Position numbers and translations under genes: made by a program | Notes under the pieces: model-generated | The model's database searches: none | Told to the model about the DNA's origin: nothing | What the model saw: only the letters and a program-made list of their open reading frames with translations | DNA from: Eledone cirrhosa | Lineage: Eukaryota | Direction: 5' to 3' | Length of the DNA stretch: 64,000 nt | NCBI GenBank assembly: GCA_964016885.1 | Contig: OZ024750.1 | Span: 55,118,001-55,182,000 of the forward strand | Part shown: positions 1,016 to 59,084 of the stretch, one piece after another | How positions within the stretch are numbered: position 1 is the first letter of the stretch | How the letters are laid out: each line of letters opens with the position of its first letter

Positions 1016-1581
1016 TATATATATACACATATATATATACACACATATATATCAGTGTACATATATATATACATATATATATATATATAAATGAATATTT
1101 ATTCAATTTAAAGCGCCAATTATCTATATATAACAAGATATGAATTTTTCTAGGGATGGGGAAATTTTCAGTTTGTTTTTATATTTTCACTTCATTTTTT
1201 ACTTTCTATTTAATACAGTCTTTGATCCAATATAATCCTGACAGTATTTGAACCAGTTTACCTCATATATATGTATGCACACACAACACTCAAGTTTCGC
1301 CATCTACTGCTATTTCATTCATATTTATTGTTTAATTAACTCTGGTCTAATTCATCAACTATTGTTAATTATATTATTACGTAGATTTCTTATAAAATCT
1401 AGTGCATATATACGTGTATATATACAGGGAGACACTGTAATAGATGTAAAGAGAGTGGGAGATAGAGTTATAGAAGTAAAGAGAGGGGGAGAACTAAGCG
1501 GTAGATAGAGTAATAGATGTAAAGAGAGGGTTAGAACGTTCAACTTGACAGTCAGTACAGTGTTCAGCATGGTAGCCAGTA

Positions 1582-1653
1582 CATATGCCAACTACCCAAC
1601 CGGCCAGCCAGCCGCATATGCGGTTGACTGGCCAGTTGGGCGGTTGGTATGTG
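1582..1653. other. 72-nt near-perfect palindrome/hairpin between ~57-bp direct repeats (1534-1589, 1654-1710); present in all 8 units
   Basis: Arms CATATGCCAACTACCCAACCGGCCAGCCAGCCGCAT / ATGCGGTTGACTGGCCAGTTGGGCGGTTGGTATGTG: 29 Watson-Crick, 4 G.T and 3 C/A positions by manual pairing. Confidence 0.9.
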
Positions 1654-1756
1654 GAACGTTCAACTACGCAGTCAGTACCAAAGTTCAACATTGTAGCCAG
1701 TGCATATGCCGATCGCCGCGCCCTCTTTGCTCTATTTTAATGACCTGGAACTAAGT

Positions 1757-1869
1757 AAAAAGAGTAGGAGATAACTCGACAAGAGCGGAGAGGGTGAGAT
1801 TCGAACCATGTAAAGTCGTTGGCTCCTGAACTTCGTAAGCGGGGCTGCTACTGACTGAGCAGCGCCGGC
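1757..1869 (-). ncRNA. Candidate Pol III small RNA, family 1, copy 1 (113 nt)
   Basis: Minus strand GCCGGCGCTGCTCAGTCAGTAGCAGC...GGTTCGAATC...CTCTTTTT. A-box-like GCTCAGTCAGTAG in tRNA register (+10), B box GGTTCGAATC, T5 terminator, TATAAG at -34 (1898-1903). Confidence 0.55.
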
Positions 1870-1897
1870 AGCAAGGCAAATCGCGCATAAAATAACG

Positions 1898-1903
1898 CTT
1901 ATA
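1898..1903 (-). promoter_or_regulatory. TATA-like element at -34 of the family 1 gene (present in all 8 copies)
   Basis: TATAAG 34 nt upstream of the inferred +1 G, the same spacing as TATAAATA in family 2; preceded by an oligo-T run. Confidence 0.45.
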
Positions 1904-2216: not shown

Positions 2217-2852
2217 GAGTTACACATAGACAGATACATACATACATACACAGATAGAAATGAGAGGTAGATAGAGTAAAAGATTTAAAGAGAGTGTGAG
2301 AAGTACGAGTTAGATAGTGTAAAAGATTTAAAGAGAGGGTGAGAGTGTGACACACATTTATCTGTCTATCTCTCTCTATTTTAACACCGGTCGTTATAAT
2401 TAGTTTTATAACACCGCTATATTACCGACATGAAAGAGGTAAATAATTATTTCTTAAATGTTTAGAACATGTTTCTCTTGTCTTCTTAAATGTATAGAAC
2501 ATGTTTCTTATTTATATTCTTAACATAGCTAGGACCTTATCTCATTTACTGGTCTCTACTTTTAGGGCTTTGCTGGTCCCATGTGCCCTCCATGAAGACA
2601 CACTCGCCCCTTCTCTCTCAGTCTCCGTACTAATTACTACACATACGTATATATATTTATTTTAAGAAACCTTAATGACAAATAATATAAAGTGTTTGTA
2701 AAGTGGGGAAGAGTAGTTTTACGGTGGGGTTGTTATATAGATATCGTTTTTGCAGTGGGGTCGTGACTGGCGGAGTCACTGTTGATGTATATACAAATCA
2801 TGTTTTGGATATAAGTGAAGTTATTTAAGAGATTTAGTTGTTTTGTATACAT

Positions 2853-4830
2853 TCATAACGGTACGCGATGGGACCCACCCACAGCCCCGGCGGACAGAAT
2901 GGAGAAGGCGTTTCCCCGGAGCACGGCAAGGGAGACGCGCTGGAAAAGCCACTCCTACTCGCGGGGCTCACACCTGCGGCTGGCCAGCTCAGCGCCTATG
3001 GTGGTGAGTAAGGAGGTAGCCCTGGGGCCGAGGACACCAGAAGTCTCCACTTCCAGGGGTACGACCGCAAACCTGTCGGAGAGTGAACGATATGTGAGGA
3101 GTTTGGCCCCCTCAGCCTGACGTGCAGCAGAACCTGGGCCAGTCGCAGACTGCACCAGGTTGCGGCTGCAGAAAGTGTCGGTGCAAGTGGCATCCCAGAC
3201 GAGGGGTTTGCCACCGCGGAACGGGAAGATGGTCATGCCATCTAGCCTTTTGCCGTCCCCTCGAGCTGGGAAGGGAAGCCTGCAGCGTCCAAGCCATGCT
3301 TAATGACTTCGTTGAGGGCAGCATGGCGTGGATTGCGGGTGGAGGCCGAAAGAGTCCATGGTGGAACGGCAGCGACATTGGTGTGAGGCCGAGCCTCAGG
3401 GAAACGCCGATGCGCAAGCTATTGTTGTCTAGCTGCGTGCGAGTGGAGAAGGAGGGCAGGGCATGGAGCCAGGCCCCACTGTGGGGTTTGGAGGCTGCAC
3501 GAAAACAAACAAGGCGGTGCTGGTCGAGCTGGCACGTGAGCCTGTCTGAGGCCAGGCTGCACTGGATGGCATCCCAAGTGTGTTGGGGGGGACTTGACGT
3601 CAACAGGGGGAGAAGGAGGAGGAACGTCTACTGGGCTAAGTCCCAGCCGGTCCCACGTCTCACAGGCGGCCACGCGTTCTCTGAACACAGAGGGTTCTGT
3701 TGTGTTTTGAAGAACCCTGCTGAAGAGGACGTGGTACGAGGTTACCGACGAAAGATATGCCGGCAAAGCTAGTGAGATCGGGGACTGGAGGCGAAGGCCG
3801 CCATACCTGACAGGTAAAGTTGCATATCTCATCGGCTGCTGCTCGGATACAAGTTTAGGTGTAGCACAGAGTGTATAGAGGAGCTTCGGCATGGCGTAGC
3901 AGTTCCTCAGCAGAAAGAGAACTGGGTGGCCATCAATCAAGCCCAGTCGGCTCGTGAGAGTCTGGACTTGATGGAGGAGCGGATGGCCGGCGGGTGGATC
4001 GGTGAGGGCATCCTCTTTGGGGGGTCACCTGAACCTGGCGGAGAATGGACCGCACGTCCAAGACGGAGACTGCAAAGCTTGCAGCATCGAGGCTGACATT
4101 CACCACCTCCGACTTGGCTGAGTTGACCTGGAGGTCGATTCCCGCCAGGGCAGGAACCACCGATTGAAGGTCATGGCAGACCGCCTGTACGGGCCCACCC
4201 AAAGTAGCATCATCCAGATACCAAACGTTGAGAGAGGCCGTTATACTCCGGGCGATGTGGTCAATACCAAGGGTGAACAGGAGGGGTCCCAAAGGGTTGC
4301 CCTGTTGGATCCCAGTAGCCAAGGGTATGACCGTATCAGCAGCAAGGCGCATGCTTGGGGCTCCATATGACAGGTAGGCAGAGGGGGCTCGGCTGAGGCA
4401 GGCCTCGAGCAGATGATCCCAGCGTAAAGAGTTGAAGGCATTCCTCATGTCAAACTTGACAATGAGGTGGCTGGAGGCCCTGGATGCCGGTTCCGAGTGT
4501 TACGGACTTGCAGATTACCTTGGCAGCCAGCCTCCGGAAGACATTGCCCACAGCAATGGGGCGTATACCATCCTTTTCTTCCTGAGAGCGGTGAGGCTGG
4601 CCGAAAAAAAGAGGCCTCGAGCATAAGAGTCCGGGGCGCCATGGATGAGCCTATTGGTGAGCGCCACAATTGCACTCAGAAGGCGGCGCCCGGCCTCAGC
4701 GGAGAGGGGAGATATAAACTCCTTGAGGAGGCCTGGTCAGAGACCATCAACATCTCTGCAGCTGCTAGCTGGGAAGGACCTGATGGCGGACATGATGTCT
4801 GCATCAGAAGCCACAAGGAGCAAGTGTGGA
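2853..4830 (-). pseudogene. CRE-like non-LTR retrotransposon (RT + restriction-like endonuclease), fragmented, unit 1
   Basis: Motifs PIAVGNVFRRLAAK, LDMRNAFNSL, GIQQGNPLGPLLF, WYLDDATLGG (RT) and GKPLVWDATCTDT..PLEVETSGVLG (RLE); multiple frameshifts and deletions. The probable 3' UTR continues to ~2655. Confidence 0.85.
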
Positions 4831-7693: not shown

Positions 7694-7806
7694 AAAAAGA
7701 GTAGGAGATAACTCGACAAGAGCGGAGAGGGTGAGATTCGAACCATGTAAAGTCGTTGGCTCCTGAAGTTCGTAAGCGGGGCTGCTACTGACTGAGCAGC
7801 GCCGGC
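7694..7806 (-). ncRNA. Candidate Pol III small RNA, family 1, copy 2
   Basis: Same as 1757-1869 with one substitution seen (plus strand GAAGTTCG vs GAACTTCG). Confidence 0.55.
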
Positions 7807-8789
7807 AGCAAGGCAAATCGCGCATAAAATAACGCTTATATCGACAAAAAAATAAAAAAATTTCAATGTTGCACTCTTGTTTGTTGTTATTTTATTTTAC
7901 GTAAACATTTCGCTGCTCTAGCCTCTTATTTCCTATTAGATTATACTTAATTCCATTAAACATTCATTCTTAGTCTCTATTTCATCTATATTTATATCGC
8001 TGTTACAGCCTTTTATTTCTACATCTATCACCTATACCCACTGTTACGCCGGTAGTATAAGTAGCTTTATAACAAGAAACGATGATATAACTCCACAAAA
8101 TGTCTTCTTGAGCAAGACACTTCACTTCATATTGCTCCAGTACACCGAGTTACACATAGACAGATACATACATACATACACAGATAGAAATGAGAGGTAG
8201 ATAGAGTAAAAGATTTAAAGAGAGTGTGAGAAGTACGAGTTAGATAGTGTAAAAGGTTTAAAGAGAGGGTGAGAGTGTGACACACATTTATCTGTCTATC
8301 TCTCTCTATTTTAACACCGGTCGTTATAATTAGTTTTATAACACCGCTATATTACCGACATGAAAGAGGTAAATAATTATTTCTTAAATGTTTAGAACAT
8401 GTTTCTCTTGTCTTCTTAAATGTATAGAACATGTTTCTTATTTATATTCTTAACATAGCTAGGACCTTATCTCATTTACTGGTCTCTACTTTTAGGACTT
8501 TGCTGGTCCCATGTGCCCTCCATAAAGGCACTCTAGTCCCTTCTCTGAGGCCCCGTACTAATTACTACACATACGTATATATATTTATTTTAAGAAACCT
8601 TAATGACAAATAATATAAAGTGTTTGTAAAGTGGGGAAGAGTAGTTTTACGGTGGGGTTGTTATATAGATATCGTTTTTGCAGTGGGGTCGTGACTGGCG
8701 TATAATAATGAGTCACTGTTGATGTATATACAAATCATGTTTTGGATATAAGTGAAGTTATTTAAGAGATTTAGTTGTTTTGTATACAT

Positions 8790-13616: not shown

Positions 13617-13729
13617 AAAAAGAGTAGGAGATAACTCGACAAGAGCGGAGAGGGTGAGATTCGAACCATGTAAAGTCGTTGGCTCCTGAACTTCGTAAGC
13701 GGGGCTGCTACTGACTGAGCAGCGCCGGC
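13617..13729 (-). ncRNA. Candidate Pol III small RNA, family 1, copy 3
   Basis: Matches 1757-1869, including TATA spacing and terminator. Confidence 0.55.
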
Positions 13730-14713
13730 AGCAAGGCAAATCGCGCATAAAATAACGCTTATATCGACAAAAAAATAAAAAAATTTCAATGTTGCACTCT
13801 TGTTTGTTGTTCTTTTATTTTACGTAAACATTTCGCTGCTCTAGCCTCTTATTTCCTATTAGATTACACTTAATTCCATTAAACATTCATTCTTAGTCTC
13901 GTGGTAAACTATTTCATCTATATTTATATCGCTGTTACAGCCTTTTATTTCTACATCTATCACCTATAGCCACTGTTACGCCGGTAGTATAAGTAGCTTT
14001 ATAACAAGAAACGATGATATAACTCCACAAAATGTCTTCTTGAGCAAGACACTTCACTTCATATTGCTCCAGTACACCGAGTTACACATAGACAGATACA
14101 TACATACATACACAGATAGAAATGAGAGGTAGATAGAGTAAAAGATTTAAAGAGAGTGTGAGAAGTACGAGTTAGATAGTGTAAAAGATTTAAAGAGAGT
14201 GTGACACACATTTATCTGTCTATCTCTCTCTATTTTAACACCGGTCGTTATAATTAGTTTTATAACACCGCTATATTACCGACATGAAAGAGGTAAATAA
14301 TTATTTCTTAAATGTTTAGAACATGTTTCTCTTGTCTTCTTAAATGTATAGAACATGTTTCTTATTTATATTCTTAACATAGCTAGGACCTTATCTCATT
14401 TACTGGTCTCTACTTTTAGGACTTTGCTGGTCCCATGTGCCCTCCATAAAGGCACTCTAGTCCCTTCTCTGAGGCCCCGTACTAATTACTACACATACGT
14501 ATATATATTTATTTTAAGAAACCTTAATGACAAATAATATAAAGTGTTTGTAAAGTGGGGAAGAGTAGTTTTACGGTGGGGTTGTTATATAGATATCGTT
14601 TTTGCAGTGGGGTCGTGACTGGCGTATAATAATGAGTCACTGTTGATGTATATACAAATCATGTTTTGGATATAAGTGAAGTTATTTAAGAGATTTAGTT
14701 GTTTTGTATACAT

Positions 14714-19588: not shown

Positions 19589-19701
19589 AAAAAGAGTAGG
19601 AGATAACTCGACAAGAGCGGAGAGGGTGAGATTCGAACCATGTAAAGTCGTTGGCTCCTGAACTTCGTAAGCGGGGCTGCTACTGACTGAGCAGCGCCGG
19701 C
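19589..19701 (-). ncRNA. Candidate Pol III small RNA, family 1, copy 4
   Basis: Matches 1757-1869. Confidence 0.55.
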
Positions 19702-20696
19702 AGCAAGGCAAATCGCGCATAAAATAACGCTTATATCGACAAAAAAAAAAAAAAAATTTCAATGTTGCACTCTTGTTTGTTGTTCTTTTATTTTACGTAA
19801 ACATTTCGCTGCTCTAGCCTCTTATTTCCTATTAGATTACACTTAATTCCATTAAACATTCATTCTTAGTCTCGTGGTAAACTATTTCATCTATATTTAT
19901 ATCGCTGTTACAGCCTTTTATTTCTACATCTATCACCTATAGCCACTGTTACGCCGGTAGTATAAGTAGCTTTATAACAAGAAACGATGATATAACTCCA
20001 CAAAATGTCTTCTTCAGCAAGACACTTCACTTCATATTGCTCCAGTACACCGAGTTACACATAGACAGATACATACATACATACACAGATAGAAATGAGA
20101 GGTAGATAGAGTAAAAGATTTAAAGAGAGTGTGAGAAGTACGAGTTAGATAGTGTAAAAGATTTAAAGAGAGGGTGAGAGTGTGACACACATTTATCTGT
20201 CTATCTCTCTCTATTTTAACACCGGTCGTTATAATTAGTTTTATAACACCGCTATATTACCGACATGAAAGAGGTAAATAATTATTTCTTAAATGTTTAG
20301 AACATGTTTCTCTTGTCTTCTTAAATGTATAGAACATGTTTCTTATTTATATTCTTAACATAGCTAGGACCTTATCTCATTTACTGGTCTCTACTTTTAG
20401 GGCTTTGCTGGTCCCATGTGCCCTCCATGAAGACACACTCGCCCCTTCTCTCTCAGTCTCCGTACTAATTACTACACATACGTATATATATTTATTTTAA
20501 GAAACCTTAATGACAAATAATATAAAGTGTTTGTAAAGTGGGGAAGAGTAGTTTTACGGTGGGGTTGTTATATAGATATCGTTTTTGCAGTGGGGTCGTG
20601 ACTGGCGTATAATAATGAGTCACTGTTGATGTATATACAAATCATGTTTTGGATATAAGTGAAGTTATTTAAGAGATTTAGTTGTTTTGTATACAT

Positions 20697-22673
20697 TCAT
20701 AACGGTACGCGATGGGACCCACCCACAGCCCCGGCGGACAGAATGGAGAAGGCGTTTCCCCGGAGCACGGCAAGGGAGACGCGCTGGAAAAGCCACTCCA
20801 ACTCGCGGGGCTCACACCTGCGGCTGGCCAGCTCAGCGCCTATGGTGGTGAGTAAGGAGGTAGCCCTGGGGCCGAGGACACCAGAAGTCTCCACTTCCAG
20901 GGGTACGACCGCAAACCTGTCGGAGAGTGAACGATATGTGAGGAGTTTGGCCCCCTCAGCCTGACGTGCAGCAGAACCTGGGCCAGTCGCAGACTGCACC
21001 AGGTTGCGGCTGCAGAAAGTGTCGGTGCAAGTGGCATCCCAGACGAGGGGTTTGCCACCGCGGAACGGGAAGATGGTCATGCCATCTAGCCTTTTGCCGT
21101 CCCCTCGAGCTGGGAAGGGAAGCCTGCAGCGTCCAAGCCATGCTTAATGACTTCGTTGAGGGCAGCATGGCGTGGATTGCGGGTGGAGGCCGAAAGAGTC
21201 CATGGTGGAACGGCAGCGACATTGGTGTGAGGCCGAGCCTCAGGGAAACGCCGATGCGCAAGCTATTGTTGTCTAGCTGCGTGCGAGTGGAGAAGGAGGG
21301 CAGGGCATGGAGCCAGGCCCCACTGTGGGGTTTGGAGGCTGCACGAAAACAAACAAGGCGGTGCTGGTCGATTTGGCGCGTGAGCCTGTCTGAGGCCAGG
21401 CTGCACTGGATGGCATCCCAAGTGTGTTGGGGGGGACTTGACGTCAACAGGGGGAGAAGGAGGAGGAACGTCTACTGGGCTAAGTCCCAGCCGGTCCCAC
21501 GTCTCACAGGCGGCCACGCGTTCTCTGAACACAGAGGGTTCTGTTGTGTTTTGAAGAACCCTGCTGAGGAGGACGTGGTACGAGGTTACCGACGAAAGAT
21601 ATGCCGGCAAAGCTAGTGAGATCGGGGACTGGAGGCGAAGGCCGCCATACCTGACAGGTAAAGTTGCATATCTCATCGGCTGCTGCTCGGATACAAGTTT
21701 AGGTGTAGCACAGAGTGTATAGAGGAGCTTCGGCATGGCGTAGCAGTTCCTCAGCAGAAAGAGAACTGGGTGGCCATCAATCAAGCCCAGTCGGCTCGTG
21801 AGAGTCTGGACTTGATGGAGGAGCGGATGGCCGGCGGGTGGATCGGTGAGGGCATCCTCTTTGGGGGTCACCTGAACCTGGCGGAGAATGGACCGCACGT
21901 CCAAGACGGAGACTGCAAAGCTTGCAGCATCGAGGCTGACATTCACCACCTCCGACTTGGCTGAGTTGACCTGGAGGTCGATTCCCGCCAGGGCAGGAAC
22001 CACCGATTGAAGGTCATGGCAGACTGCCTGTACGGGCCCACCCAAAGTAGCATCATCCAGATACCAAACGTTGAGAGGGGCTGTTATACTCCAGGCGATG
22101 TGGTCAATACCAAGGGTGAACAGGAGGGGTCCCAAAGGGTTGCCCTGTTGGATCCCAGTAGCCAAGGGTATGACCGTATCAGCAGCATGGCGCATGCTTG
22201 GGGCTCCATATGACAGGTAGGCAGAGGGGGCTCGGCTGAGGCAGGCCTCGAGCAGATGATCCCAGCGTAAAGAGTTGAAGGCATTCCTCATGTCAAACTT
22301 GACAATGAGGTGGCTGGAGGCCCTGGATGCCGGTTCCGAGTGTTACGGACTTGCAGATTACCTTGGCAGCCAGCCTCCGGAAGACATTGCCCACAGCAAT
22401 GGGGCGTATGCCATCCTCTTTCTTCCTGCGAGCGGTGAGGCTGGCCGAAAAAAAGAGGCCTCGAGCATAAGAGTCCAGGGCGCCATGGATGAGCCTATTG
22501 GTGAGCGCCACAATTGCACTCAGAAGGCGGCGCCCGGCCTCAGCGGAGAGGGGAGATATCAACTCCTTGAGGAGGCCTGGTCAGAGACCATCAACATCTC
22601 CGCAGCTGCTAGCTGGGAAGGACCTGATGGCGGACATGATGTCTGCATCAGAAGCCACAAGGAGCAAGTGTGG
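20697..22673 (-). pseudogene. CRE-like RLE LINE, unit 4
   Basis: A 342-aa ORF (21263-22291) carries RT motifs; the flanking domains are in other frames. Confidence 0.85.
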
Positions 22674-27097: not shown

Positions 27098-27126
<29 letters not shown>

Positions 27127-27277
27127 TCCTTTGACATTTCTTAGAAAAAAAATGAAAAAGTTTTGTGAGAACCCCAATGTTTATTTATTTTATTTTATTT
27201 TTAAATAAAATTAATAACATTAATTTTATTTTGAAATTAGGTTTATAAATATTAATTATCAGCAGACCTTTGTAGCA

Positions 27278-27388
27278 GTCTTGGCGGCTTAGTGGGAAGT
27301 ACCAGAGATGGTGAGGTCCTTGTCTGTAGGTTCAATCCTGGTCTGGGAGTTCAATCATTGCTGTAATGTGTCCTGTTAATCTTTTTTT
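27278..27388 (+). ncRNA. Candidate Pol III tRNA-like RNA, family 2a (block 1)
   Basis: TATAAATA at 27244 (-34), A box CGGCTTAGTGG at +8, B box GGTTCAATCC at 27329 plus a second GAGTTCAATC, T7 terminator. Confidence 0.55.
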
Positions 27389-27668
27389 AAATTTTCCTCA
27401 GAAAAAACTGAAAATCTTTGGTGAGAACCCCAATGTCTATTTATCTAATATAATTTAATTTATTTTATTTTATTTTATTTTACTTTAGTTAAATTGTCAA
27501 AACCACTGGTGATCTAAAGTTAGAGGAGACAGATAAAATAGACATATTGTCTCCTCAACCTTTAGATCTTCAGTGTTTTCGACAATTTAACTAAAATAAA
27601 AAATTAAATTCAATATAATTAAATAAATAGGGGTTCTCTTTTTCAAAGAGATATAGAAAGAAAATTAT

Positions 27669-27806
27669 AAAAGATTAACATGACACCTTACATGTATCTC
27701 ATGGACCAGGATTGAACCTGAGTCCCCAATTCAACCCTCAGACCAGGATTGAACACCCAGAACAGGATCTCACCATCTCTGGTACTTCCCACTAAGCTAC
27801 CGAGAC
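27669..27806 (-). ncRNA. Candidate Pol III tRNA-like RNA, family 2b (block 1)
   Basis: TATAAATA at 27840 (-34), GTCTCGG-TAGCTTAGTGG A box, duplicated GTTCAATCCTGGTC B boxes, T4 terminator. Confidence 0.55.
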
Positions 27807-28032
27807 TGATACAAAGATGTACTGAAATTTAATATTTATAAACCTACTTTCAAAATAAAATTAAAAATAAAATATATATATATATATATTCCTTTGACAT
27901 TTCTTAGAAAAAAGAACTGAAAAAGTTTTGTGAGAACGCCAATGTCTATTTATTTTATTTTATTTTTAATTAAATTAGTTATATTTTGAAAGTAGGTTTA
28001 TAAATATTAATTTTCAATAGACCTTTGTAGCA

Positions 28033-28134
28033 GTCTTGGTGGCTTAGTGGGAAGTACCAGAGATGGTGAGATCCTTGTCTGTAAGTTCAATTCTTGCTTG
28101 GAGACATGTCTAATGTGTCCTATTAATCTTTTTT
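28033..28134 (+). ncRNA. Candidate Pol III tRNA-like RNA, family 2c (block 1)
   Basis: TATAAATA at 27999 (-34), A box TGGCTTAGTGG at +8, T-arm GTAAG-TTCAATT-CTTGC at nt 49-65, cloverleaf-like fold 28033-28106, T6 terminator. Confidence 0.6.
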
Positions 28135-28255
28135 AAATTTTCCTTTTACATCTCTTAGAAATAACTGAAAATCTTTGGTGAGAACCCCAATGTCTATTTA
28201 TCTAATATAATTAATTTAATTTAATTTAATTTAATTTTTATTTTAGTGAAACCAC

Positions 28256-29370: not shown

Positions 29371-29483
29371 AAAAAGAGTAGGAGATAACTCGACAAGAGC
29401 GGAGAGGGTGAGATTCGAACCATGTAAAGTCGTTGGCTCCTGAACTTCGTAAGCGGGGCTGCTACTGACTGAGCAGCGCCGGC
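29371..29483 (-). ncRNA. Candidate Pol III small RNA, family 1, copy 5 (B variant unit)
   Basis: Identical to copy 1 by eye despite substitutions and indels in the flanks. Confidence 0.55.
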
Positions 29484-30498
29484 AGCAAGGCAAATCGCGC
29501 ATAAAATAACGCTTATATCGAAAAAATAAATCAAAAATTTCAATGTTGCACTCTTGTTTGTTGTTCTTTTATTTTACGTAAACATTTCGCTGCTCTAGCC
29601 TCTTATTTCCTATTAGATTACACTTAATTCCATTAAACATTCATTCTTAGTCTCGTGGTAAACTATTTCATCTATATTTATATCGCTGTTACAGCCTTTT
29701 ATTTCTACATCTATCACCTATAGCCACTGTTACGCCGGTAGTATAAGTAGCTTTATAACAAGAAACGATGATATAACTCCACAAAATGTCTTCTTGAGCA
29801 AGACACTTCACCTCATATTGCTCCAGTACACCGAGTTACACATAGACAGATACATACATACACATATATATGTACACAGATAGAAATAAGAGGGAGATAG
29901 AGTAAAAGATGTAAAGATAGTGTAAAAGATTTAAAGAGAGGGTGAGAGTGTGACACACATTTATCTGTCTATCTCTCTCTATTTTAACACCGGTCGTTAT
30001 AATTAGTTTTATAACACCGCTATATTACCGACATGAAAGAGGTAAATAATTATTTCTTAAATGTTTAGAACATGTTTCTCTTGTCTTCTTAAATGTATAG
30101 AACATGTTTCTTATTTATATTCTTAACATAGCTAGGACCTTATCTCATTTACTGGTCTCTACTTTTAGGGCTTTGCTGGTCCCATGTGCCCTCCATGAAG
30201 ACACACTCGCCCCTTCTCTCTCAGTCTCCGTACTAATTACTACACATACGTATATATATTTATTTTAAGAAACCTTAATGACAAATAATATAAAGTGTTT
30301 GTAAAGTGGGGAAGAGTAGTTTTACGGTGGGGTTGTTATATAGATATCGTTTTTGCAGTGGGGTCGTGACTGGCGTATAATAATGAGTCACTGTTGATGT
30401 ATATACAAATCATATTTTGGATATAAGTGAAGTTATTTAAGAGATTTAGTTGTTTTGTATACATTCCAGTTGTTGTCTCCCTGTTTCTTCTTCAACAA

Positions 30499-35298: not shown

Positions 35299-35411
35299 AA
35301 AAAGAGTAGGAGATAACTCGACAAGAGCGGAGAGGGTGAGATTCGAACCATGTAAAGTCGTTGGCTCCTGAACTTCGTAAGCGGGGCTGCTACTGACTGA
35401 GCAGCGCCGGC
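35299..35411 (-). ncRNA. Candidate Pol III small RNA, family 1, copy 6
   Basis: Matches 1757-1869. Confidence 0.55.
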
Positions 35412-36406
35412 AGCAAGGCAAATCGCGCATAAAATAACGCTTATATCGACAAAAAAAAAAAAAAAATTTCAATGTTGCACTCTTGTTTGTTGTTCTTTTA
35501 TTTTACGTAAACATTTCGCTGCTCTAGCCTCTTATTTCCTATTAGATTACACTTAATTCCATTAAACATTCATTCTTAGTCTCGTGGTAAACTATTTCAT
35601 CTATATTTATATCGCTGTTACAGCCTTTTATTTCTACATCTATCACCTATAGCCACTGTTACGCCGGTAGTATAAGTAGCTTTATAACAAGAAACGATGA
35701 TATAACTCCACAAAATGTCTTCTTCAGCAAGACACTTCACTTCATATTGCTCCAGTACACCGAGTTACACATAGACAGATACATACATACATACACAGAT
35801 AGAAATGAGAGGTAGATAGAGTAAAAGATTTAAAGAGAGTGTGAGAAGTACGAGTTAGATAGTGTAAAAGATTTAAAGAGAGGGTGAGAGTGTGACACAC
35901 ATTTATCTGTCTATCTCTCTCTATTTTAACACCGGTCGTTATAATTAGTTTTATAACACCGCTATATTACCGACATGAAAGAGGTAAATAATTATTTCTT
36001 AAATGTTTAGAACATGTTTCTCTTGTCTTCTTAAATGTATAGAACATGTTTCTTATTTATATTCTTAACATAGCTAGGACCTTATCTCATTTACTGGTCT
36101 CTACTTTTAGGGCTTTGCTGGTCCCATGTGCCCTCCATGAAGACACACTCGCCCCTTCTCTCTCAGTCTCCGTACTAATTACTACACATACGTATATATA
36201 TTTATTTTAAGAAACCTTAATGACAAATAATATAAAGTGTTTGTAAAGTGGGGAAGAGTAGTTTTACGGTGGGGTTGTTATATAGATATCGTTTTTGCAG
36301 TGGGGTCGTGACTGGCGTATAATAATTAGTCACTGTTGATGTATATACAAATCATGTTTTGGATATAAGTGAAGTTATTTAAGAGATTTAGTTGTTTTGT
36401 ATACAT

Positions 36407-42829: not shown

Positions 42830-42863
<34 letters not shown>

Positions 42864-43012
42864 CTTTGACATTTCTTAGAAAAAAAATGAAAAAGTTTTG
42901 TGAGAACCCCAATGTTTATTTATTTTATTTTATTTTTAAATAAAATTAATAACATTAATTTTATTTTGAAATTAGGTTTATAAATATTAATTATCAGCAG
43001 ACCTTTGTAGCA

Positions 43013-43123
43013 GTCTTGGCGGCTTAGTGGGAAGTACCAGAGATGGTGAGGTCCTTGTCTGTAGGTTCAATCCTGGTCTGGGAGTTCAATCATTGCTGTA
43101 ATGTGTCCTGTTAATCTTTTTTT
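43013..43123 (+). ncRNA. Family 2a, block 2
   Basis: Matches 27278-27388. Confidence 0.55.
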
Positions 43124-43393
43124 AAATTTTCCTCAGAAAAAACTGAAAATCTTTGGTGAGAACCCCAATGTCTATTTATCTAATATAATTTAATTTATTT
43201 TATTTTACTTTAGTTAAATTGTCAAAACCACTGGTGATCTAAAGTTAGAGGAGACAGATAAAATAGACATATTGTCTCCTCAACCTTTAGATCTTCAGTG
43301 TTTTCGACAATTTAACTAAAATAAAAAATTAAATTCAATATAATTAAATAAATAGGGGTTCTCTTTTTCAAAGAGATATAGAAAGAAAATTAT

Positions 43394-43531
43394 AAAAGAT
43401 TAACATGACACCTTACATGTATCTCATGGACCAGGATTGAACCTGAGTCCCCAATTCAACCCTCAGACCAGGATTGAACACCCAGAACAGGATCTCACCA
43501 TCTCTGGTACTTCCCACTAAGCTACCGAGAC
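43394..43531 (-). ncRNA. Family 2b, block 2
   Basis: Matches 27669-27806. Confidence 0.55.
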
Positions 43532-43757
43532 TGATACAAAGATGTACTGAAATTTAATATTTATAAACCTACTTTCAAAATAAAATTAAAAATAAAATAT
43601 ATATATATATATATTCCTTTGACATTTCTTAGAAAAAAGAACTGAAAAAGTTTTGTGAGAACGCCAATGTCTATTTATTTTATTTTATTTTTAATTAAAT
43701 TAGTTATATTTTGAAAGTAGGTTTATAAATATTAATTTTCAATAGACCTTTGTAGCA

Positions 43758-43859
43758 GTCTTGGTGGCTTAGTGGGAAGTACCAGAGATGGTGAGATCCT
43801 TGTCTGTAAGTTCAATTCTTGCTTGGAGACATGTCTAATGTGTCCTATTAATCTTTTTT
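43758..43859 (+). ncRNA. Family 2c, block 2
   Basis: Matches 28033-28134. Confidence 0.6.
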
Positions 43860-43980
43860 AAATTTTCCTTTTACATCTCTTAGAAATAACTGAAAATCTT
43901 TGGTGAGAACCCCAATGTCTATTTATCTAATATAATTAATTTAATTTAATTTAATTTAATTTTTATTTTAGTGAAACCAC

Positions 43981-45105: not shown

Positions 45106-45218
45106 AAAAAGAGTAGGAGATAACTCGACAAGAGCGGAGAGGGTGAGATTCGAACCATGTAAAGTCGTTGGCTCCTGAACTTCGTAAGCGGGGCTGCTAC
45201 TGACTGAGCAGCGCCGGC
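45106..45218 (-). ncRNA. Candidate Pol III small RNA, family 1, copy 7
   Basis: Matches 1757-1869. Confidence 0.55.
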
Positions 45219-46233
45219 AGCAAGGCAAATCGCGCATAAAATAACGCTTATATCGAGAAAATAAAAAAAAAATTTCAATGTTGCACTCTTGTTTGTTGTT
45301 CTTTTATTTTACGTAAACATTTCGCTGCTCTAGCCTCTTATTTCCTATTAGATTACACTTAATTCCATTAAACATTCATTCTTAGTCTCGTGGTAAACTA
45401 TTTCATCTATATTTATATCGCTGTTACAGCCTTTTATTTCTACATCTATCACCTATAGCCACTGTTACGCCGGTAGTATAAGTAGCTTTATAACAAGAAA
45501 CGATGATATAACTCCACAAAATGTCTTCTTGAGCAAGACACTTCACCTCATATTGCTCCAGTACACCGAGTTACACATAGACAGATACATACATACACAT
45601 ATATATGTACACAAATAGAAATAAGAGGGAGATAGAGTAAAAGATGTAAAGATAGTGTAAAAGATTTAAAGAGAGGGTGAGAGTGTGACACACATTTATC
45701 TGTCTATCTCTCTCTATTTTAACACCGGTCGTTATAATTAGTTTTATAACACCGCTATATTACCGACATGAAAGAGGTAAATAATTATTTCTTAAATGTT
45801 TAGAACATGTTTCTCTTGTCTTCTTAAATGTATAGAACATGTTTCTTATTTATATTCTTAACATAGCTAGGACCTTATCTCATTTACTGGTCTCTACTTT
45901 TAGGGCTTTGCTGGTCCCATGTGCCCTCCATGAAGACACACTCGCCCCTTCTCTCTCAGTCTCCGTACTAATTACTACACATACGTATATATATTTATTT
46001 TAAGAAACCTTAATGACAAATAATATAAAGTGTTTGTAAAGTGGGGAAGAGTAGTTTTACGGTGGGGTTGTTATATAGATATCGTTTTTGCAGTGGGGTC
46101 GTGACTGGCGTATAATAATGAGTCACTGTTGATGTATATACAAATCATATTTTGGATATAAGTGAAGTTATTTAAGAGATTTAGTTGTTTTGTATACATT
46201 CCAGTTGTTGTCTCCCTGTTTCTTCTTCAACAA

Positions 46234-51048: not shown

Positions 51049-51161
51049 AAAAAGAGTAGGAGATAACTCGACAAGAGCGGAGAGGGTGAGATTCGAACCA
51101 TGTAAAGTCGTTGGCTCCTGAACTTCGTAAGCGGGGCTGCTACTGACTGAGCAGCGCCGGC
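51049..51161 (-). ncRNA. Candidate Pol III small RNA, family 1, copy 8
   Basis: Matches 1757-1869. Confidence 0.55.
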
Positions 51162-52155
51162 AGCAAGGCAAATCGCGCATAAAATAACGCTTATATCGAC
51201 AAAAAAAAAAAAAAATTTCAATGTTGCACTCTTGTTTGTTGTTCTTTTATTTTACGTAAACATTTCGCTGCTCTAGCCTCTTATTTCCTATTAGATTACA
51301 CTTAATTCCATTAAACATTCATTCTTAGTCTCGTGGTAAACTATTTCATCTATATTTATATCGCTGTTACAGCCTTTTATTTCTACATCTATCACCTATA
51401 GCCACTGTTACGCCGGTAGTATAAGTAGCTTTATAACAAGAAACGATGATATAACTCCACAAAATGTCTTCTTGAGCAAGACACTTCACTTCATATTGCT
51501 CCAGTACACCGAGTTACACATAGACAGATACATACATACATACACAGATAGAAATGAGAGGTAGATAGAGTAAAAGATTTAAAGAGAGTGTGAGAAGTAC
51601 GAGTTAGATAGTGTAAAAGATTTAAAGAGAGGGTGAGAGTGTGACACACATTTATCTGTCTATCTCTCTCTATTTTAACACCGGTCGTTATAATTAGTTT
51701 TATAACACCGCTATATTACCGACATGAAAGAGGTAAATAATTATTTCTTAAATGTTTAGAACATGTTTCTCTTGTCTTCTTAAATGTATAGAACATGTTT
51801 CTTATTTATATTCTTAACATAGCTAGGACCTTATCTCATTTACTGGTCTCTACTTTTAGGGCTTTGCTGGTCCCATGTGCCCTCCATGAAGACACACTCG
51901 CCCCTTCTCTCTCAGTCTCCGTACTAATTACTACACATACGTATATATATTTATTTTAAGAAACCTTAATGACAAATAATATAAAGTGTTTGTAAAGTGG
52001 GGAAGAGTAGTTTTACGGTGGGGTTGTTATATAGATATCGTTTTTGCAGTGGGGTCGTGACTGGCGTATAATAATGAGTCACTGTTGATGTATATACAAA
52101 TCATGTTTTGGATATAAGTGAAGTTATTTAAGAGATTTAGTTGTTTTGTATACAT

Positions 52156-58529: not shown

Positions 58530-58565
<36 letters not shown>

Positions 58566-58714
58566 CTTTGACATTTCTTAGAAAAAAAATGAAAAAGTTT
58601 TGTGAGAACCCCAATGTTTATTTATTTTATTTTATTTTTAAATAAAATTAATAACATTAATTTTATTTTGAAATTAGGTTTATAAATATTAATTATCAGC
58701 AGACCTTTGTAGCA

Positions 58715-58825
58715 GTCTTGGCGGCTTAGTGGGAAGTACCAGAGATGGTGAGGTCCTTGTCTGTAGGTTCAATCCTGGTCTGGGAGTTCAATCATTGCTG
58801 TAATGTGTCCTGTTAATCTTTTTTT
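58715..58825 (+). ncRNA. Family 2a, block 3
   Basis: Matches 27278-27388; TATA at 58681. Confidence 0.55.
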
Positions 58826-59084
58826 AAATTTTCCTCAGAAAAAACTGAAAATCTTTGGTGAGAACCCCAATGTCTATTTATCTAATATAATTTAATTTAT
58901 TTTATTTTATTTTACTTTAGTTAAATTGTCAAAACCACTGGTGATCTAAAGTTAGAGGAGACAGATAAAATAGACATATTGTCTCCTCAACCTTTAGATC
59001 TTCAGTGTTTTCGACAATTTAACTAAAATAAAAAATTAAATTCAATATAATTAAATAAATAGGGGTTCTCTTTTTCAAAGAGAT

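Follow-up and report, generated by a model that had tools for sequence, protein, structure and literature searches.

The Element and Its Surroundings in the Window

The DNA analysed here, called the window in the following, is a stretch of 64,000 nucleotides from Eledone cirrhosa. It contains eight copies of the stretch found at positions 1757–1903, all of them on the minus strand. Seven are identical and the lone substitution lies at transcript position 39 of copy 2, which agrees with the count of the original prediction. When the predicted transcript is numbered from position 1869 (+1), a TATAAG word is found at −34 (1903–1898), a 6 bp hairpin with the A box within it at transcript positions 7–26, the B box GGTTCGAATC at positions 63–73, a 7 bp complementarity between 42–48 and 84–90, and a run of five thymidines (T5) at 109–113. 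All these signals had been named in the original prediction and could be read in the sequence. Compared to the consensus sequences TRGYnnARBGG and GGTTCRAnYCY given in PMC10137851, the B box agrees at 11 of 11 positions, and the A box has three mismatches in the form present in the window (C8) and two in a second form (T8). A box, B box, and T run stand in the order of a type-2 polymerase III layout, the spacing from A to B being 43 nucleotides in the element versus 30–40 reported. A TATA word between −40 and −20 was seen in five of 16 native polymerase III genes inspected and occurs by chance in 13–14% of the 14-nucleotide windows of the unit, so that it is modest evidence for a promoter. The coordinates of all features are collected in Table 1.

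Table 1: Features of the element, its copies, and the surrounding repeat unit in the window.
Feature	Position	Strand	Remark
113-nt tRNA-derived element, predicted transcript	1757..1869	-	ends inferred from tRNA register and T run
TATA-like box, −34 to −29	1898..1903	-	18/19 copies with upstream region kept
A box, positions 8–19	1851..1862	-	scored against the consensus in PMC10137851
6-bp hairpin, D-arm relic	1844..1863	-	sequence and fold
B box	1797..1807	-	11/11 to consensus
T5 run, predicted terminator	1757..1761	-	intact in 111/111 young copies
Copy 2, A unit	7694..7840	-	carries the single substitution
Copy 3, A unit	13617..13763	-	
Copy 4, A unit	19589..19735	-	
Copy 5, B unit	29371..29517	-	
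Copy 6, A unit	35299..35445	-	
Copy 7, B unit	45106..45252	-	
Copy 8, A unit	51049..51195	-	
Purine/pyrimidine-skewed minisatellite, downstream boundary of old 0.8–0.9 kb monomer	1453..1535	.	43-bp period in older copy
Hairpin (1580–1655) and duplicated 57-nt block	1534..1710	.	other sequence there in older subfamily
Minisatellite tract upstream of element	2262..2344	.	direct repeat of 1453–1535, 81% over 83 nt
Broken non-LTR retrotransposon fragment	2860..4800	-	RVT_1 E 1.1e-9 in copy at 21263–22339

Besides the element, the surrounding tandem unit of 5.9 kb contains SINE pieces, simple repeats, and the remains of a reverse-transcriptase element. In the window there is also a higher-order repeat of 15.7 kb, which adds 5 kb of sequence; an inverted SINE-like pair with B boxes was observed in this extra segment at 27100–28250, and again at 42840–43980 and 58540–59080. 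The non-LTR fragment is broken differently in the A and B units, its longest open reading frames comprise about 360 amino acids, and its endonuclease-like motifs presumably recall the CRE clade. The two minisatellite direct repeats are 809 bp apart in the unit of the window.

Downstream of the element a near-perfect hairpin of 75 nucleotides with a loop of 2 nucleotides was observed, which is found only in the young subfamily. It yielded the best sub-threshold Rfam match (E ≤ 10), and weak matches to microRNA models lay far below the cut-off. A layout of a tRNA promoter driving a microRNA was rejected, as this hairpin lies past the T5 run, has a loop of 2 nucleotides only, is absent in the older subfamily, and is partly deleted in one copy.

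Likeness to tRNA and Vault RNA

ARAGORN called no tRNA on the element. The Rfam comparison proposed in the original prediction was carried out and gave no match at the gathering score in the whole window; models of tRNA, vault, SRP, and Y RNA did not match the element at E ≤ 10 either, and five older loci yielded nothing of note. In the tRNA register four of the seven acceptor pairs and two of the five T-stem pairs can form. A functional tRNA was rejected on the grounds that the cloverleaf is absent, with these few pairs, no ARAGORN call, and no RF00005 match. The original prediction was right in that the element is not a tRNA; its statement that acceptor pairing is lacking has to be corrected, since four pairs are possible.

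The likeness of the element to tRNA is beyond chance, as seen from a global alignment to native tRNA-Lys(CTT) with z-values of 6.0–6.9 versus shuffles. Over the first 26 nucleotides of the element tRNA-Lys scores 19–21 and the other sampled types 17 or less. A T8 copy shares 22 of its 26 initial nucleotides with native tRNA-Lys(TTT), and older copies start like the native intron-bearing tRNA-Lys(TTT). Genes for tRNA-Lys(TTT) with an intron of about 19 nucleotides were observed in a cluster at L198 (G000:C2:99.10 Mb). The parent comparison covered threonine, isoleucine, and lysine tRNAs and one repeat-borne tRNA type; between the latter (z 6.1) and lysine (z 6.0) there was a tie in the case of the window copy. 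As most isotypes lie outside this sample, tRNA-Lys is put forward only tentatively as the parent. A tRNA-Ser parent was rejected, the 3′ pattern being found at four places, with no tRNA called by ARAGORN at any of them. As a separate observation, an intact-looking tRNA gene was noted in a dispersed repeat whose length is 430 bp or more (L080, L082–L090; C1–C5, C28). Its anticodon varies over ten copies (GAC, AGC, GGC, GGT, GTC) in shared flanks, and the repeat is probably a mobile element which has captured a tRNA.

Vault RNA had been listed among the analogues with A and B boxes. From these analogues the tRNA-derived type-2 layout and a snaR-like duplication held up, and vault RNA dropped out as an identity. 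The size, the type-2 promoter layout with A and B boxes, and the T run are common to both; however, RF00006 does not match the element at E ≤ 10, native vault RNAs pair their 5′ with their 3′ ends to a terminal stem and share a motif, neither of which is present in the element, and a separate native vault RNA cluster occurs elsewhere in the genome (of 49 candidates scored, 14 exceed the gathering score). That the element is a divergent vault RNA can thus hardly be credited. The native cluster, at G000:C3:221.18–221.25 Mb (L013–L018), comprises two sequence types with a stable terminal stem, and a canonical B box was not seen by eye in its genes. No paper on cephalopod vault RNA was found in the literature searched.

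Distribution in the Genome

The genome has a size of 3.0 Gb and telomeres of TTAGGG repeats, and its simple repeats and SINEs would suit an octopod. It contains about 310–335 copies of the element, mostly in 5.9 kb tandem units near chromosome ends. A pattern search allowing up to three mismatches yielded 335 matches for the B box side and 312 for the 5′ side, and reversed-pattern controls yielded none. Candidates genome-wide were similar in number for the flank at 1440–1750 (415) and for the element (380), hence both are part of the same repeat family. Exact matches numbered 181 for the C8 form and 77 for the T8 form. Among the first 100 of the 181 C8 matches 80 lie within 0.5 Mb of a contig end; all 77 T8 matches divide into 37 at no more than 0.5 Mb from a contig end, 21 on two small contigs, and 19 elsewhere, these tallies having been made by hand from the match positions.

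Telomere repeats were found at six of nine array-bearing contig ends examined (left ends of C9 and C13; right ends of C5, C6, C13, and C18) and were not found at the right end of C10 and the left ends of C8 and C15. All arrays near contig ends are oriented away from the end. Interstitial arrays were observed on G000:C11, a contig of 53.9 Mb, at 34.98–35.12 Mb and 32.73–32.76 Mb. They may be the trace of a former chromosome end or of a join made in scaffolding, and three 10 kb stretches at the edges contained no telomere repeats.

Older relatives came to light by one of the 112 element matches in 1.06 Mb which was only 91% alike, with 12 of 113 sites differing inside the element, 42 of about 450 outside, and the TATA word lost. 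This copy led to 13 further copies at 87–90%, and a search restricted to the downstream flank found 31 places. The older relatives occupy about 20 scattered loci with the monomer present once or twice at each. This monomer has a length of 0.83–0.90 kb, is bounded by the 43 bp minisatellite, and is tandem at times. Past the downstream minisatellite of an older copy, at L153:7167–7800 (C8:319.7 kb), there is another piece of the element, which is truncated and resembles the B box.

Divergence Inside the Element and in Its Flanks

The original prediction had stressed that the element is almost invariant and unchanged in the B units. This is indeed observed, but it is no sign of constraint. Units A5 and B1 differ at 49 of 3,614 sites (1.36%), a divergence at which zero changes in 113 nucleotides are expected often (P = 0.22), and 1,147 of 3,627 windows of 113 nucleotides are unchanged between the two units. 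The invariance of the element between A and B units is not beyond chance and is not informative; near-identity of the copies probably results from recent amplification and not from selection on an RNA. The deletion adjoining the element in the B units is present as described, its size being 24 bp rather than about 22.

For the young family, 1.06 Mb of DNA were aligned to positions 1110–2760 of the window, which gave 116 pieces: 111 span the element, two are cut by the edge of the DNA examined, and three end before the element. In the 111 copies 30 variant alleles were counted at the 113 sites of the element and 270 at 1,460 flank sites, two simple-repeat tracts being masked. An expectation matched for AT, GC, and CpG amounts to 24.3 alleles inside the element (ratio 1.23, CI 0.83–1.76). 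Alleles present in at least two young copies, a filter which removes most assembly errors, numbered 11 versus 10.0 expected, and those in at least five copies 3 versus 4.8 (P = 0.29), a slight lean towards constraint. Pairwise divergence of 15 isolated copies is 2.19% inside the element and 2.16% outside. The motif sites are near background with five alleles at 31 sites; the B box consensus is kept in 110 of 111 copies and T5 in all 111. In all but one of the 15 isolated copies A-box position 8 is T, so that the commoner C8 form, which is further from the consensus, is likely derived. Fitch counts on a flank-only tree (68/113 versus 390/1,460) were set aside because the tree had been fitted to the flanks themselves.

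The deep comparison was based on 22 aligned rows. They came from 18 of the 31 loci, one of which contributed two copies, and from an additional locus, to which the window copy and a T8 copy were added. Two loci without the element, nine young copies, and one weak match without a locus were left out. On the tree of these old and young copies the element has 100 changes where the flanks predict 90.1 (ratio 1.11, CI 0.90–1.35). Several copies have internal deletions, four share a 13-nucleotide insert, three are cut at the 5′ end, and the B-box pattern failed in five. A weak hint against free decay is that the 21 sites of TATA, B box, and T5 have 7 changes in all versus 14.3 expected (P = 0.027), for a set which was chosen post hoc and which includes the T run used as the anchor for cutting; with the A box added the count is 19 versus 23.7 (P = 0.20). 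By itself the B box has 5 changes versus 8.7 (P = 0.14), and the A box has 12 versus 9.4, which is the background rate or faster. The quietest 20-nucleotide window of the alignment is the T run with the bases after it (ratio 0.28).

As a control, 11 native tRNA-Lys(CTT) genes were found to be 96.4% identical in the body and 66% and 63% in the flanks. In the 16 of 22 family rows with both flanks present the body reaches 89.6% and the flanks 92.9% and 90.6%. Read contigs under coded labels (organisms B, C, D, and E, which may not be distinct species) were also compared with the window: X2 covers 1100–2117 with six other letters, X3 1743–1893 with none, X7 1677–1896 with five, and X8 1786–1898 with one. 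A reading of the bare flanks of X8 as element-only conservation was dropped, since coverage holes prove nothing; many X8 pieces are of single-read length, and X8 also has the B-type insertion at 2854.

Conservation of an RNA fold is not supported. The fold z-value is −1.13 for the window copy and −1.91 to +0.66 for eight other copies, whereas two native vault RNAs reach −2.24 and −2.53. A consensus fold of 17 copies has −4.0 kcal/mol with a covariation term of −0.07, and three of its 16 pairs show one double change each. Among 30 young haplotypes no pair of either proposed stem is changed on both sides. The original prediction had suggested that the element may be the functional cargo of the array and had named equal divergence of element and flanks as part of the outcome that would speak against it. 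Such equal divergence was found at three depths, the fold is not conserved, and the cargo view is not supported.

A Probable Pseudogene Carried by a Repeat

The element is likely a decayed tRNA-Lys-derived pseudogene, a passenger in a repeat, and it mutates as fast as its flanks; a probability of about 0.72 is given to this reading. A mutation rate equal to that of the surrounding DNA indicates that it is likely carried along by the repeat and is not a conserved RNA gene. A tRNA-derived pseudogene is recognised by its likeness to native tRNA in register together with a mutation rate equal to that of the flanks, and the element has both. Pseudogenes of tRNA can be amplified inside segmental duplications or satellite units. 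Like the element, such pseudogenes have tRNA-derived A and B boxes and have lost the cloverleaf, mutate at the background rate, and owe their copy number to the surrounding repeat; unlike them, the element occurs some 300 times, in arrays of uniform orientation at the ends of many chromosomes, and has retained TATA and T5. In the history proposed here a tRNA-Lys copy would have decayed inside a minisatellite-bounded monomer, which would first have spread to about 20 loci by recombination between minisatellite tracts. One derivative of this monomer sits in the 5.9 kb unit of retroelement fragments and simple repeats; it would have been captured there, and unequal exchange, both inside single subtelomeres and from one to another, would afterwards have amplified the unit and kept its copies alike. 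Where TATA, B box, and T5 are intact, a copy may still recruit TFIIIC and produce a short by-product transcript. In the literature searched for tRNA-like subtelomeric arrays in molluscs and octopus the element is not described, subscription journals being mostly outside this search and supplementary repeat libraries being places which could hold the unit.

A polymerase III RNA family which is young and confined to one lineage, comparable to snaR and 4.5S RNA, in which some copies are transcribed and the body is free to change with only promoter and terminator maintained, would account for the full layout of TATA, A box, B box, and T5 and for the low count of changes in TATA, B box, and T5 in the deep tree. 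It is decidedly unlikely, as the body is unconstrained at every depth, no fold is conserved, indels vary the length, and the A box exceeds its expected number of changes. According to PMC3045588, snaR RNAs of African great apes have about 115 nucleotides, a polymerase III layout, tandem arrays formed by segmental duplication, and older scattered relatives, all of which is the same here; however, they are derived from Alu/7SL, expressed, and bound by protein, whereas the element is known from its sequence, with a fold that is unstable versus shuffles. The rodent 4.5SI and 4.5SH RNAs, as described in PMC10137851, resemble the element in a TATA-like box near −30, A and B boxes, a T-run terminator, and an A box off the consensus, which in 4.5SH is compatible with function; 4.5SI is tRNA-derived as well. 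They are abundant, characterised RNAs, whereas the body of the element is no better kept than its flanks. Spread by DNA duplication into tandem arrays, one mark of the snaR and 4.5S families, is found in the element, and a stable shared structure, another one, is not. Redundant arrays weaken the selection on single copies, so that the element may have a function which needs the promoter alone.

A role at the level of DNA, with the B boxes binding TFIIIC, so that they tether chromosome ends or form a barrier in their chromatin and favour the retention of the arrays, and with the RNA being irrelevant, is very unlikely. The perfect B box, the uniform orientation of the end arrays, and the boundary function of TFIIIC sites in yeasts (PMC3395662, PMC2040200) agree with it. 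Against it stand the B box count by itself, the interstitial arrays near 35 Mb of C11, and the three of 116 unit pieces which end before the element inside the DNA examined; the shared orientation is explained by exchange between subtelomeres. It is highly improbable that the element is the promoter head of a retrotransposed SINE or of a tRNA-bearing TRIM of the Helenus type. Such heads typically lack a cloverleaf and have A and B boxes like those of tRNA (PMC10886601), and three older copies start at or near the A box with unrelated DNA upstream. However, the upstream flank is common to the unit in all 112 matches in 1.06 Mb, T5 follows 36 nucleotides past the B box, a SINE body and tail are absent, the element lies between repeated tracts and not within an LTR, and the unit ends are irregular. 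Flanks are shared in these 112 matches, and the element is not a dispersed SINE, as far as the copies examined are concerned. Helenus TRIMs, in the same source, also have a tRNA-like sequence in a repeat able to form tandem arrays, with a length of 311–1263 bp versus 5.9 kb for the unit here. Unlike in Helenus, no LTR, primer-binding site, PPT, or target-site duplication was seen in alignments judged by eye.

In this reading the element is an ordinary passenger, which serves as a worked case of a young array mimicking conservation and as a marker of exchange between chromosome ends. A bolder idea, which is unlikely, is that the tRNA-Lys copy might have turned into a polymerase III cassette with TATA, B box, and terminator kept and the body drifting, present in some 300 inward-facing copies at chromosome ends, where transcription or TFIIIC would shape subtelomeric chromatin or yield a snaR-like RNA. 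If the promoter signals were selected and the copies transcribed, invertebrates would have a counterpart of snaR in this element, and the idea of tRNA-like boundary elements in the subtelomeres of animals could be tested on it.
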